NCBI GenBank assembly: GCA_964016885.1
Contig: OZ024743.1
Span: 63,364,001 to 63,428,000, forward strand
Direction of reading: 5' to 3'
From: Eledone cirrhosa
Taxonomy: Eukaryota
Length of the DNA: 64,000 bases
The position numbers and the translations under genes are program-made. The notes under the pieces were generated by a model. The model was not told the origin of the DNA, made no database searches, and was given only the letters and a program-made list of their open reading frames with translations. Each line of letters begins with the position of its first letter. The first letter of the stretch is position 1. Shown here in pieces: positions 18,971 through 50,568 of the stretch.

Positions 18971-19789
18971 ATATATGTATATATATATATAGCAAGAACA
19001 TATATATATATATATATATATATATATATAATATAATATAGCAAGACCATATATAAATATATATATATATATATATATAGCAAGACCATATATAAATATA
19101 TATATATATAGCAAGACCATATATATATATGGTCTTGCTATATATATATATATATATATATATATATATATATATATATATATATATATATATATATAGC
19201 AAGACCATATATAAATATATATATATAGCAAGACCATATATATATATGGTCTTGCTATATATATATATATATATATATATATATATATATATATATATAT
19301 ATATATATATAGCAAGACCATATATAAATATATATATATATATATATATATATAGCAAGACCATATATATATATAGCAAGACCATATATATATATAGCAA
19401 GACCATATATATATATAGCAAGACCATATATATATATAGCAAGACCATATATATATATAGCAAGACCATATATATATATAGCAAGACCATATATATATAT
19501 AGCAAGACCATATATATATATAGCAAGACCATATATATATATAGCAAGACCATATATATATATAGCAAGACCATATATATATATAGCAAGACCATATATA
19601 TATATATAGCAAGACCATATATATATATAGCAAGACCATATATATATATAGCAAGACCATATATATATATATAGCAAGACCATGTATATATAGCAAGACC
19701 ATATATATATATAGATATATATATATATAGCAAGACCATATATATATATAGATATATATATATATATAGCAAGACCATATATATATATA

Positions 19790-20392
19790 TGGTGGCTGCC
19801 AACTCGTTTTCGAGTACGGCCACTACTTTATATCCATGTAGGAGAACCCCTACTGATGCGCTGAACGAGTGTGACTTTTTAGTCCAGCCAGCGACTTGAA
19901 AGCTCTGGTACAAACACTACACTTGTGACAATTATTGACACATAGTGCTGGGCCCATGGTACCATGTGACGACAAATGCAGAGAGATCTCCAGATATAAA
20001 GCAATGCCTGTGCCGTGAAGCTTTTATAGTGAGCAAAGGCACTGCACAAAGCCAGTCCCACTCTCTTAACCAAGATGATATTTACCAAAAAGAAGAACAA
20101 GTCAACATCATTGGATACCATCAGGGTTGCAGGTGTTATATCAGAGTTTTCCTACTCCTAGAATTCTGCCTTGACAAAGGCTAAGGGGTCATCTCTCCCG
20201 GTGATTTTGGATGGCCATTGACTCTTAAGAGCTCCTTTGCCTTTTGACAGGTTTTGTTTTTAGTCCTGCAGGATGTCCAAAGTCACCCTCCTCACCAAGA
20301 AACCTTGGTGGGGTTGCCAGTTTAGTCGCCAACGACCCGACCATGGGACAGGTTGTACTGGAATACATGTTACCAGTAGCACCAACTGGTGA
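19790..20392 (-). mobile_element. Unclassified ~600-bp insertion, possibly a non-autonomous RTE/RTEX derivative
   Basis: Unique GC-richer segment bounded by (TA)n; minus strand has ctaggagtaggaaaactctga, resembling a motif I recall from RTE/RTEX 5' UTRs; no credible ORF. Confidence 0.35.
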
Positions 20393-20950
20393 TATAGATA
20401 TATATATACATAGCAAGACCATATATATATATAGATATATATATATATATATATAGCAAGACAATATATATATATAGATATATATATATATAGCAAGACA
20501 ATATATATATATAGATATATATATATATATATAGCAAGACCATATATATATATATATATATATATATATATATATATATATATATATATATATATAGCAA
20601 GACCATATATATATATATATATATATATATATATATATATATATATATATATATATATATAGCAAGACCATATATATATATATATATATATGTATATATA
20701 TATATATATATATATATAGCAAGACCATATATATATATATATATATATATATATATAGCAAGACCATATATATATATATATATATATATATATATATATA
20801 TATATATATATATATATATATATATATATATATATATAGCAAGACCATATATATATATATATATATAGCAAGACCATATATATATATATATATATATATA
20901 TGTATATATATATATAGCAAGACCATAGATATATATATATATATATATAT

Positions 20951-22679
20951 ATAAGAGAGCGAATTGATCTAGATGAAATGCAGTTCGGGTTTGTGTCAGG
21001 AAAAAGTACCACAGACGCTCTTTTCATTGTACGACAACTACAGGAGAAGTACCTAGCTAAAAGTAAACCCCTATACTTAGCTTTCGTCGACTTGGAGAAG
21101 GCCTTCGACAAGAAAACTAGGTGTTGATGAATGGCTTGTGAGAGCTATACAAGCCATGTATAAAGAAAGTCAGCAAGGTTAGAATTAACAACGAATATAG
21201 TGAAGAGTTTAGTGTAAAAGTTGGTGTTCATCAGGGCTCTGTTCTTAGCCCCCTACTATTTATTATTGCCCTCCAGGCTATAACAGTGGAGTTCAAGACC
21301 GGCTGCCCATGGGAACTCCGATACGCAGATGATCTAACGCTCATAGCTGAATCAATGGCCGAGCTACAGAAGAAATTCCAAACATGGAAGCACGGCCTAG
21401 AATCAAAAGGCCTTAAAATTAACCTGGCTAAGACTAAAGTTCTAGTTTGAAAGAAAGAAAATAAGGCGGCAGTCCCCTCCGGGAAGTGGCCATGGGCAGA
21501 CTGTAGGAAAGGCGTAGGTAGAAATTCCATTTTGTGTCCCAAATGCAAAGTTTGGGTGCATAAAAGATGTAGTGGGATCACAGGTAAGCTAACTAAGAAC
21601 ATAGATTTTGCATGTGGCCGGTGTTCTGGGGCAATAAGTAGCAGCAAGTGCTCAAAAAATACTAGCTCTTTCAACTGCGCAGAGGGTTCTATAGAAATAG
21701 TGGACAGCTTCCGTTACCTGGGTGAAAAAAATCAGCAGTGGGGGAGGGTGCTCTGAAAGTACAGTAGCTAGAGTCAGAACTAGGTGGAAAAAGTTCAGAG
21801 AGCTTATACCACTATTAGCCGCTAAAGGGTTCTCCCTAAAAATGAAAGGCAGGTTGTACGATGCCTGCATACGAACAGCAATGTTGCATGGCAGTGAGAC
21901 CTGGGCATTGTGTGCAGAGGATATACGCAGACTAGAGAGAAACGAAGCTTGCATGATCCGCTGGATGTGTAATAGTAATATACGTGAACGACAAAGCATA
22001 AACGAACTAAGGAAAAAATTAGAAATAAGAGGGATCAGATGTTTACTCGAGAGAAGGCTACGTTGGTATGGTCACGTGATGCACATGAAGGACGATAGCT
22101 GTATAACAAAGTGCAGGGCAATAAAGATAGAAGGTAGCCACGGAATAGGCAGACCCAGAAAAACCTGGGACGAGCTGATAAACTCCGACCTCACACACTT
22201 ACGCCTCACCAAGACAATGTCACTGGACCGAGACCTTTGGCGGTACTCAGTAACAGAGAAGACCCGCCTTACCTAAATACATAGTAAAACCTACTACAGC
22301 CAGTAGGCATCTCTAACAAAATACCCCCCCCCCCCCCCCGTCCCACCACCACCACCCCATCCACACCACCCCGTTCTATGTAAAGTTATGTTGGTGCCAC
22401 ACCATCCAGGCCGAAACAAATGAGATTGTGTAGGTGTCACGACAAAAAAACACACAGTCCACGCTGTAATGTGGCCGTGTAGGCAACACGGTAAAAACCT
22501 CCCAGACCCACACTGTAAATGTGGTTTGTGTTAGGAAAGGCATCCAACTGTAGAAAACCTGCCAGACAGTCCTATGCGAGCAAGACAATCACTCTTGCCT
22601 CAAGTGGGACTACCCCCGTCCAAACCCATGCAAGCGTGGAGCACGGACGTTAAACGTTGATGATGATGATGATGATGAT
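20951..22679 (+). mobile_element. 5'-truncated RTE LINE, subfamily A, disrupted
   Basis: Near copy of 23668-25363 with a deletion at ~21110, frameshifts, 3' UTR and (GAT)n tail. Confidence 0.95.
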
Positions 22680-22805
22680 AGCAAGACCATATATATATAT
22701 ATATATATATATATATAGCAAGACCATATATATATATATATATATATATATATATATATATATATAGCAAGACCATATATATATATATATATATATATAT
22801 ATATA

Positions 22806-48610: not shown

Positions 48611-48626
48611 ATATATATATATATAT

Positions 48627-49295
48627 ATATACGTGAACGGCAAAGCATAAACGAACTAAGGAAAAAATTAGAGATAAGAGGGATCAGATGTTGTTTACTC
48701 GAGAGAAGGCTGCGTTGGTATGGACACGTGATGCGCATGAAAGTCGATAGCTGTATAACAAAGTGCAGGGCAATAAAGATAGACGGTAGCCACGGAATAG
48801 GCAGACCTAGAAAAACATGGGATGAGCTGATAAACTCCGACCTCACACACTTACACCTCTCCAAGACAATGTCACTGGACCGAGACCTTTGGCGGTACTC
48901 AGTAACAGAGAAGACCCGCCTTGCCAGTAGGCATCTCTAACAAAATACACCCCGTCCCGCCACCACCCCCACCCCATCCACACCACCCCGTTCTATGTAA
49001 AGTTATGTTGGTGCCGCGCCATCCAGACCGAAACAAATGAGATCGTGTAGGTGTCACGACAAAAAAACACACAGTCCACGCTGTAATGTGGCCGTGTAGG
49101 CAACACGGTAAAAACCTCCCAGACCCACACTGTAAATGTGGTTGGTGTTAGGAAGGGCATCCAACTGTAGAAAACCTGCCAGACAGTCCTATGCGAGCAA
49201 GACAATCACTCTTGCCTCAAGTGGGACTACCCCCGTCCAAACCCATGCAAGCGTGGAACACGGACGTTAAACGTTGATGATGATGATGATGATGA
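48627..49295 (+). mobile_element. Short 3' fragment of RTE LINE, subfamily A
   Basis: Matches 24730-25363; a small deletion removes the normal stop; (GAT)n tail. Confidence 0.94.
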
Positions 49296-49325
49296 TATAT
49301 ATATATAGCAAGACCATATATATAT

Positions 49326-50555
49326 CTCGAGTCTAAAAGACAACCACACCCAATATAAGTTACACTGGGACATCCTAGCTATTGCTAGATCGTATAACGG
49401 AAATAAAAGACCATGTGACCTCTGCGCCGCTGAGGCCCTGGAAATACTCTACGCCACAGACCACATCTTAAACAAAAAATCTGAGGCAATTTCGGCTTGT
49501 AAACATAAATTGCACAAAACTTTCCTGTATTACAGCCCCACGTTATACCCTAAAGGATAGCACGATCTATACGTGGATATTTTACGTCTTGATGTGGGAG
49601 CTAAGTATATGTTTTGTTTATTCCGTTACTTATTTACATAGGTAAGTATATATTACCCGTATGTTTTGTGAAGGTATGTATACCTTCTCGTACGTATATT
49701 TGACTGTTATGGCGTATAATTTTTACATATTCTGGTATTTAGGGTTTGGCTATGTGTATACGGGAGTTTTGCATCTGCGTGAGTATGCAGTATCATACGT
49801 ATGGTGGGTGTATATGTGTACTTCTTGTTTTAGTTGACTTACGTCTCCGAACATTCTGTATTTATTTGTAGGTATGCGTGTGCGCTTGTTATATACATAT
49901 TTATTTACTTATATACGTTTATATAATTATTTATTTATTTGTACACAAGCATACACACACACACATATTTATATGTGCGTGGTTTTGTATACCTATGGTA
50001 AGGTTTTGCGTATGCTTGTGTATGTACGTATCTGTTTGCATGTATGTATTTATTTGTTTCTATTACTTCTGTATTGTATTTATTTACTTTGTTCTTAACT
50101 CTGTAGCGGAGATTCATTTGGTCTCCTAGTTAGAATTTTAGTCTACAACTTATGCTATACCATTTACGTGGTTTTGTCTTTGCGTGTTATTTTTCTCCAC
50201 GTTCCACATATGACTTATTATCTTCGTTTTTTCGTTCATTGCCAGAGAACGTCTCTATGCACCACCTAAGAGAACATTAGTCTACGACCTCTTTTATACC
50301 ATAAACGTGGTTCTGTCTTTGCGAGTAATTGTTTTTCACCGCTCCTATTAATGACGTATTATTCGTTTTTTCCCGTTCTTTGCCAGCGAACGTTTCCACA
50401 ACCAAAGTATCGTCTTCCCGTCTTCCTCCGGTTGCAACGTTTTTTGAAATATCCAGTTCTGCGTTTACAGATTGACTTTGTTAGTTTCAGAAGATCCCGT
50501 TAAGGGTGAAAGCAGCGATTCTTTGCTTAAACTTTAATCTGTTATTTTAATAAAT
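49326..50555 (+). mobile_element. 3' fragment of a second Hydra-like PLE family (EN C-terminus + 3' UTR)
   Basis: Manual translation SLKDNHTQYKLHWDILAIARSYNGNKRPCDLCAAEALEIL...LNKKSE...CKHK...* (stop 49558-49560) aligns with the C-terminus of the 709-aa ORF; not in the ORF track. Confidence 0.82.
50483..50533 (+). ncRNA. Variant hammerhead ribozyme motif
   Basis: agttt-CAGAAGA-tccc-gttaa-gggt-GAAA-gcag..ttgc-TT-aaact; all three stems form but the core has U4>A. Confidence 0.5.
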
Positions 50556-50568
50556 ATATATATATATA

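Follow-up and report, generated by a model that had tools for sequence, protein, structure and literature searches.

The array and its setting

This report deals with a (TA)n-based satellite array, and with the retroelements embedded in it, in a 64,000-nucleotide stretch of DNA from Eledone cirrhosa (contig OZ024743.1, forward strand; hereafter "the window", whose own numbering is used throughout). The array extends from the first TA at position 18970 to the end of the last TA tract at 50569, limits that bear out those proposed in an earlier sequence-only reading of the same DNA. Reading and tokenising the sequence reveals TA tracts of 9-73 nt that are linked via an 8-nt core, and the monomer has no fixed length. 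Satellite and TA sequence together make up 14,045 of the 31,609 bp; the remainder consists of 15 inserts, among them copies of RTE retrotransposons and pieces of Penelope-like elements (PLEs). Between 19 and 49 kb, Tandem Repeats Finder registers period-2 arrays and the GC fraction is 0-0.25 in blocks, while the flanks of this AT-rich window have values of about 0.33-0.40. TA runs of at least 20 bp number 230 inside the array, against a single one in the 32.4 kb of flank, and no TTAGGG or TTAGG doublet is present in the window. The locus is one interstitial array with ordinary DNA on either side.

A 16th insert, a 3' piece of RTE subfamily B (50570-50782, +), sits in the terminal core-free TA tract, just past the right edge of the interval first reported. 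The inserts had been described as bounded by (TA)n with satellite cores between most neighbours, and this holds: for 14 of the 16 the nearest core is no more than 55 bp from one end or the other, and for 10 this is true of both ends. Their orientation is mixed (9 + and 7 -, two of these being inferred from architecture). None of the 15 inserts of the array proper is intact, and their divergence from sister copies, about 0-2.5%, indicates that their ages vary.

Satellite cores, blocks and polarity

The exact core, GCAAGACC, occurs 233 times within the array (217 on the + strand, 16 on the - strand) and is absent from the window outside 18950-50560. When variants are included there are 272 cores, 248 on + and 24 on -, which is to say that 91% share one orientation; core polarity is common to 12 of the 13 satellite blocks (p = 0.003). 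Variant cores occur in local runs, and the same variants turn up again in separate blocks. The lengths of neighbouring TA tracts are uncorrelated in four of five blocks. Runs of identical units are nevertheless present, including thirteen 13-nt tracts nearly in a row, as are alternating higher-order patterns and an AA interruption that recurs at the same spot in four successive units. A search of metagenome contigs with a two-core satellite pattern gave 0 matches, a result that is uninformative for this species.

The first block (18970-19790, +) begins with a unit of special interest that is discussed below. Tokenised cores define the blocks at 20398-20953 (+, 11 cores), 25717-29603 (+, 73 cores, with a 7-core inverted run at 27562-27820), 36196-36566 (-, inverted 7-nt variant cores), 36834-39844 (+, 70 cores) and 46245-48631 (+, 63 cores), the right end of the last being dominated by a derived core, GCAACACA. 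Past about 28200 the cores of the 73-core block become sparser and are replaced by AA interruptions, and from 29933 to 32202 the array is a core-free, pure A/T tract with 160 AA interruptions and one TT. Over the whole of 28200-32202 these interruptions are the sole marker, 242 AA versus 2 TT (strand biases of 160:1 and 82:1). This fading of the core reflects either a succession of satellite variants or an effect of consensus quality. At 41733-41759 (+) an orphan (GAT)n tail adjoins a core, and the junction is identical to the 3' end of an RTE copy (RTE-A1, below) 19 kb away; it is either a tail-only insertion or the product of a long-range exchange.

The probable source of the core

Immediately to the left of the array lies a decayed, 5'-truncated RTE (18240-18969, -). 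It was recognised by tblastn similarity, with stops and frameshifts, to residues 468-723 of the RTE-A2 copy inside the array, and is about 24-26% diverged from RTE subfamilies A and B. Its truncated 5' end adjoins the first TA tract. Read in inverted orientation, the final 8 nt of this element are identical to the core: the seed 8-mer GCAAGACC occupies 18962-18969 (-) and aligns in register with Ala-Lys-Thr codons of the RTE, and the element-strand end, GCAAGACCAAGTCC, aligns with the Ala-Lys-Thr-Lys-Val codons of subfamilies A and B. Extended by the following A, the seed matches the core exactly; everywhere else in the window GCAAGACCA runs on into satellite sequence, and here alone into non-satellite DNA. 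The first satellite unit (18992-18999), GCAAGAAC, repeats the seed in inverted orientation with one mismatch, on the other side of a 22-nt TA loop. Seed and first unit form a hairpin of -11.7 kcal/mol (z -4.1, a kind of score that low-complexity DNA inflates). Ninety-one percent of the cores are inverted relative to the seed. The upstream half of the left-edge RTE was not found by tblastn beyond the array in the window. The 5' truncation points of this element (18969) and of a second RTE, RTE-B2 (42942), are only some 10 nt apart in the open reading frame (ORF), which is probably a matter of chance.

Taken together, these features suggest that the core was likely copied by DNA fold-back from the end of a dead RTE at the edge of the array, and that the locus likely records the birth of a satellite and not a telomere- or centromere-like structure. 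Both this origin and the triplication described next are points absent from the sequence-only reading.

A fold-back triplication inside the array

Comparison of tract lengths identifies a direct-inverted-direct triplication of six satellite units at 38174-39040. The successive lengths are 35, 59, 27, 19, 37, 35; then, on the other strand, 35, 37, 19, 27, 61, 35; and then 35, 61, 27, 19, 37, 35. The summed length differences are 2 and 0 nt, and not one of 1,000,000 random draws was equally close. The turn-arounds are TA tracts of 36-38 nt. This DUP/INV/DUP order with self-complementary turns is that of a small inverted triplication, and at the level of sequence it documents fold-back copying within the array.

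RTE inserts

Seven RTE copies lie inside the array and fall by divergence into three subfamilies, as had been proposed: A with four copies (3.6-5.6% apart), B with two (3.0% apart) and C with one, the subfamilies differing from each other by 20-27%. All are 5'-truncated at differing points, and every copy has kept its 3' end and (GAT)n tail. A single ORF with a reverse transcriptase (RT), a microsatellite tail and 5' truncation are class features seen in A, B and C; the clade name RTE, which we take to apply to all three, is carried over from the earlier reading.

RTE-A1 (20954-22677, +) has frameshifts and stops, and its (GAT)n tail ends 3 nt from a core. RTE-A2 (22806-25361, +), the youngest RTE copy, retains an open frame with RT (Pfam RVT_1, E 1.5e-31) and PHD domains; it lacks the N-terminal endonuclease domain PF03372 that is present in relatives of about 1,050 aa, with which it shares 44-56% identity among the 120 matches listed. 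RTE-A3 (34805-36195, -) has one frameshift, and a 112-bp tandem duplication lies within its 3' untranslated region (UTR) at 34913-35146. RTE-A4 (48632-49294, +) has a 5' junction with 5 nt of ATATA microhomology. The C subfamily is represented by a 3' piece recognised by sequence matches (39845-40317, +), and the B subfamily by RTE-B1 (40331-41655, -; one stop, and a 5' end joined within a core, CAAGACC) and RTE-B2 (41797-42942, -). Over 320 shared columns the private changes number 6 in A1, 8 in A3, 7 in A4 and 0 in A2, and only 2 changes are shared. Since this pattern is star-like, the RTE-A copies represent separate insertions of different ages; an origin of the RTE copies by duplication from each other within the array was rejected for the same reason and because their 5' ends differ. 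Target-site duplications are not discernible within TA.

The insert at 19791-20397 (-), left unclassified by the sequence-only reading, is likely a bipartite non-autonomous RTE derivative. It combines a UTR-like part, which we take to resemble a 5' UTR, with a C-terminal C2H2 finger (Pfam zf-C2H2, E 9e-5, below the curated cut-off); no autonomous partner lies within the window. Such a class of bipartite derivatives is described in the portion of PMC5786205 consulted.

Penelope-like inserts

The largest PLE (43152-46244, +) has an inverted 3' arm, a five-fold 14-bp stutter at the inversion junction and a near-complete ORF. Its protein has DKT at residue 57 in place of DKG, the CxCX5C linker CNCVQPGMC, YVG, CKLC (CxxC) and CNH (CxH); the CCHH motif is absent. 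According to the sections of PMC8557442 available to us, this combination is diagnostic of the Hydra clade, in which insertion into (TA)n is the rule for nearly every family; that two PLEs of the array carry Hydra-clade motifs fits the microsatellite bias that had been invoked from the outset. The 711-codon frame starts inside the stutter (43321-43396, a 14-bp unit repeated 5.4 times), which was copied from the end of the inverted arm and supplies the first codons. The N-terminus is 5'-truncated: the RWK region, which in relatives lies 75-96 aa before DKT and is carried by 58 of the 117 (30-44% identity), is gone. The inverted arms differ at 1 of 190 nt, so the element is young. A motif scan of its 3' region found no hammerhead core.

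A second Hydra-type family (49326-50553, +), represented by an endonuclease end and 3' region, is 37% identical to the first over 68 aa. It has 5 nt of TATAT microhomology at its 5' junction and a hammerhead-like core near 50488. The 5'-truncated element at 33189-34709 (-) has a GIY-YIG domain, a hammerhead-like core, a CX4CxxC linker (CIDQKCITC) and cysteines within GIY-YIG (VVYSIRC...C...YIG). The parts of PMC8557442 at hand give a CX2-5CxxC linker and such cysteines as features of Neptune/Nematis, and the element is assigned to that type without distinguishing between the two. These clade calls come from motifs and not from an RT tree. A 3' piece of the same family, 5.4% diverged, lies at 36567-36833 (+).

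Three further inserts are PLE-like on other grounds: 25410-25716 (-), a 3' piece whose class is not proven, by a hammerhead-like core in a motif scan; 29604-29932, a mini insert, by its PLE-type inverted arms, identical over 62 bp; and its sister 32203-33114, about 5% diverged and without an ORF, by architecture. None of the three has a long frame or a tblastn match from either PLE protein, and the two proteins do not align to each other (best E 0.25). The Rfam scan listed 150 of its 322 matches; these contained no hammerhead, all being sub-threshold microRNA matches to low-complexity hairpins. RNA folds of five candidate hammerhead stretches did not clearly exceed those of shuffled sequences (z 0.6 to -1.7). 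The sequence-only reading had counted at least five PLE families. Protein motifs support three of them, two Hydra-type and one Neptune/Nematis-type, and the other two are defined on architecture or a hammerhead-like motif and lack coding sequence. The long open frames that it had noted are real (RTE-A2 and the 711-codon PLE), but all belong to 5'-truncated copies.

The flanks

The coding RTE remnants of the flanks are old, the left-edge element being one and a fragment at 58456-58683 (38% protein identity) another, in keeping with the earlier description of the flanking elements as decayed. That description does not extend to two SINE-like elements (short interspersed elements) with RTE-B tails, at about 9437-9774 (+) and 57696-58127 (+). 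These are only 3.4-7.3% from RTE-B1 and RTE-B2 and about 5% from each other, and have a tRNA-like head. The first lies in a short run of TA and resembles RTE-C at its very 3' terminus (90.6% over 53 bp). TA runs in the flanks (44 bp at 53004; 8794-8842) have no core.

No host gene was recognised in 172 stop-to-stop flank frames, in which only a mariner-type transposase remnant (3929-4303, +; Pfam Transposase_1, E 3e-16) exceeded a Pfam curated cut-off. The flanks also contain an (AG)69 repeat, 98% pure, at 10558-10695; five copies, 73-88% alike, of an unclassified dispersed repeat of 170-230 bp that is very abundant in read runs (2882-3106, 13007-13220, 51291-51459, 56284-56515 and 60592-60818); and, at 55323-56126, rearranged pieces of a repeat also present at 6028-6238.

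The array as a landing place

Five PLE-type queries and the bipartite insert had no match anywhere in the 32.4 kb of flank, which also contains no ORF-bearing young RTE. These observations support the array as a preferred landing place, and in this respect the landing-pad interpretation of the sequence-only reading stands; the telomere likeness attached to it does not, for reasons given below.

Cores are cut at the 5' end of RTE-B1 and probably at that of RTE-A3, and the RTE-A1 tail ends, as noted, 3 nt from a core. These positions, which later TA-TA recombination would not easily give, speak for insertion into an existing satellite and against a misjoin; the array predates at least some, and probably most, insertions and went on rearranging afterwards. 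Short reads are in agreement with insertions of different ages: most sequences differ at 14 listed positions of RTE-A4 and at 14 of the 49.3-kb PLE (40 of 487 matches listed, with uneven restriction-site-associated DNA sampling). Reads over 48634-52200 indicate a very high copy number of these families (66,520-227,662 records per run); one run, in which only 0.06 of the flank words were shared, is excluded from the evidence. The accessible part of PMC13282606 gives a rate of 0.0036 per million years, at which a divergence of 2-2.5% would correspond to about 6-7 million years, if the DNA is taken as octopus.

Origin of the array: weighing the explanations

We favour, with a probability of roughly 0.62, the explanation that an interstitial (TA)n satellite was born at this locus by fold-back and that TA-preferring PLEs and RTEs then inserted into it one by one. 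Its point of departure is the old RTE whose 5' end adjoins a TA tract and of which the first satellite unit is an inverted copy. From there, a free 3' end in the self-complementary tract would have snapped back, copied 8-9 flanking bases and re-annealed to TA. According to the sections of PMC13645644 consulted, breaks occur readily in TA repeats, and templated insertions may be left behind when these are repaired. Misaligned TA pairing, by slippage, unequal exchange or break repair, may then have amplified the unit and changed the tract length at every round, while new variant cores presumably swept local blocks. The lack of correlation between neighbouring tract lengths is what would be expected if each round of copying re-anneals out of register or if slippage soon erases the lengths. 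Fold-back appears to have acted again in the mirrored six-unit triplication. Endonucleases of Hydra- and Neptune-type PLEs probably favour (TA)n, a view drawn in part from the literature, and the (GAT)n-tailed RTEs may have primed on AT microhomology or exposed ends. The insertions would have been independent, 5'-truncated and of differing ages.

Several observations weigh against this explanation. Alignment of the seed with the coding frame of subfamilies A and B requires two 1-nt gaps, and its register score, equalled at only 0.8% of positions in RTE-A2, is equalled at 7.9% of those in RTE-B1. A competing source of the core is offered by RTE 3' UTRs and SINEs, in which the motif AGCAAGAC is likewise present, and a genome-wide satellite joined to an old RTE via 7 nt of microhomology would look alike. 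The 7-core inverted run at 27562-27820 was considered as a mirror copy and rejected, as it mirrors no block. With regard to targeting, 8 of 10 young RTE-driven insertions are in TA, which makes up 30% of the available target, yet this test (p = 0.002) is post hoc. Metagenome contigs with RTE relatives show a (GAT)n-type tail in five loci, and no TA run of at least 10 bp in any of 38; because of the latter, TA preference is not a demonstrated clade-wide trait of RTEs. TA microhomology of 5 nt is found at only two of six testable 5' junctions (RTE-A4 and the 49.3-kb PLE). Finally, no junction-bridging read over 48634-52200 is among the matches listed, from which the junction repeats were skipped. 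Since its tract lengths are almost unchanged, the triplication must be either very recent or a library or assembly artefact.

The strongest competitor, although unlikely in our estimation, is that TA satellite with this core is dispersed through the genome as a family, one member of which arrived here and joined the old RTE by way of AAGACCA microhomology; the clustering of elements would then be plain TA targeting. The two gaps, the unremarkable register score against RTE-B1 and the wide occurrence of AGCAAGAC all lend themselves to this view. It has to suppose, however, an exact 9-nt match placed right at the truncated end of a LINE (long interspersed element) and inverted with respect to 91% of the cores, and it must accommodate the core-free TA runs of the flanks and the absence of an upstream RTE half on the far side of the array.

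It is improbable that the length of the array, its inverted runs or its 2.3 kb of AA-rich sequence without cores arose as artefacts of sequencing or assembly, or that unrelated TA-flanked loci have been joined. Among the matches listed, neither a read nor a contig bridges a junction, the triplication is nearly perfect and the excess of AA over TT is extreme. On the other hand, the variant cores reappear in separate blocks, a single AA interruption is shared in position by four successive units, and the embedded non-repeat DNA is clean (62 of 62 arm bases identical, a 741-codon open frame). A misjoin, the outcome by which the sequence-only reading had proposed that it be judged, is unlikely because 12 of 13 blocks share their polarity while the elements do not.

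Still less credence is given to the idea of a telomerase-like process in which a resident PLE or RTE reverse transcriptase extends broken TA ends with GCAAGACC-(AT)n units, using a transcript of the array as template. Such a rogue telomerase, realigning in TA at each round, would yield an interstitial satellite of a single polarity and could also capture whole retroelement cDNAs, a scenario to which we assign an equally slight chance. The single strand polarity of the cores, the uncorrelated tract lengths and the templated stutter of the 14-bp unit at the PLE junction would be in accord with it, and PLE reverse transcriptases are sister to telomerase in the consulted portion of PMC8557442. Runs of identical units, alternating higher-order patterns and the mirror triplication point instead to DNA-templated copying, and there is no intact element in the array.

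Least plausible of all is a functional telomere-like or nascent centromeric or heterochromatic island maintained by retroelements: satellite and retroelement blocks do alternate and the flank frames yielded no host-gene Pfam match apart from mariner, but element polarity is mixed, the position is interstitial with ordinary DNA on both sides, telomeric doublets are lacking, the elements are endonuclease-bearing generalists, and the satellite amounts to only 14 kb without a fixed monomer. The array is most likely functionless junk in flux.

Significance and comparison with known systems

The cluster is real and its cause largely known; the likely record of a satellite's birth is the new part. 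Clustering of elements on TA is in itself expected biology, TA targeting having been published for PLEs (PMC8557442) and some DNA transposons (PMC4486113), and transposable-element hotspots for an octopus genome (PMC13282606), as far as the available parts of these sources go. Supplements of PMC13282606 and PMC8557442 may hold the element families described here. In the open literature, judged mostly by title and abstract, we found no report of a satellite that acquired its core through TA fold-back from the end of a neighbouring LINE. The first step of satellite birth is rarely visible. A single locus here would preserve both the seed and its earliest inverted copy, together with the subsequent spread of variant cores and a recent fold-back event, and the dated insertions would divide this history into successive intervals. 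Should the core turn out to occur nowhere else, the array would show that TA microsatellites are able to take up a small number of bases from their flank, expand to 14 kb or more and accumulate retroelements that seek TA. In that case other long TA arrays in the genome would be predicted to carry different cores, each matching its own flank.

LINEs of the RTE type with a PHD finger and a (GAT)n tail resemble the copies described here in their RT, PHD and tail; in contrast to the 0 of 38 relative loci with a TA run of at least 10 bp, all 8 of 8 array copies are TA-flanked. HeT-A, TART and TAHRE form retrotransposon telomeres, in which, as here, simple repeats alternate with truncated retroelements. 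The present array differs from these in that its elements have no uniform polarity and bear endonucleases, and in that it is not terminal and has no telomeric repeat. The endonuclease-less Athena and Coprina PLEs are grouped with retrotransposon telomeres in the consulted sections of PMC8557442. The same sections describe Hydra-clade PLEs that are like the 43152-46244 element (DKT, CxCX5C, CxxC/CxH, no CCHH, about 3 kb, an inverted 5' arm and TA flanks) and, in end motifs, like that at 49326-50553, and a Neptune/Nematis type like 33189-34709 in its CX4CxxC linker. What is unlike the published (TA)n PLEs, on motifs and without a tree, is the presence of several families in one composite satellite, with all copies truncated. 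MuTAnT, TAFT and Micron, from what is accessible of PMC4486113, are likewise flanked by variable TA runs that serve as a safe landing site, but they are DNA transposons at dispersed microsatellites without a core-bearing satellite. The triplication, lastly, has turns that are 36-38-nt TA tracts in a satellite and is a single germ-line or assembly instance, not an experimental event; yet its DUP/INV/DUP geometry is that of the small inverted triplications and template-switch duplications, a few hundred bp long with short self-complementary turns, that arise from replication errors in the excerpted account of PMC13334657.

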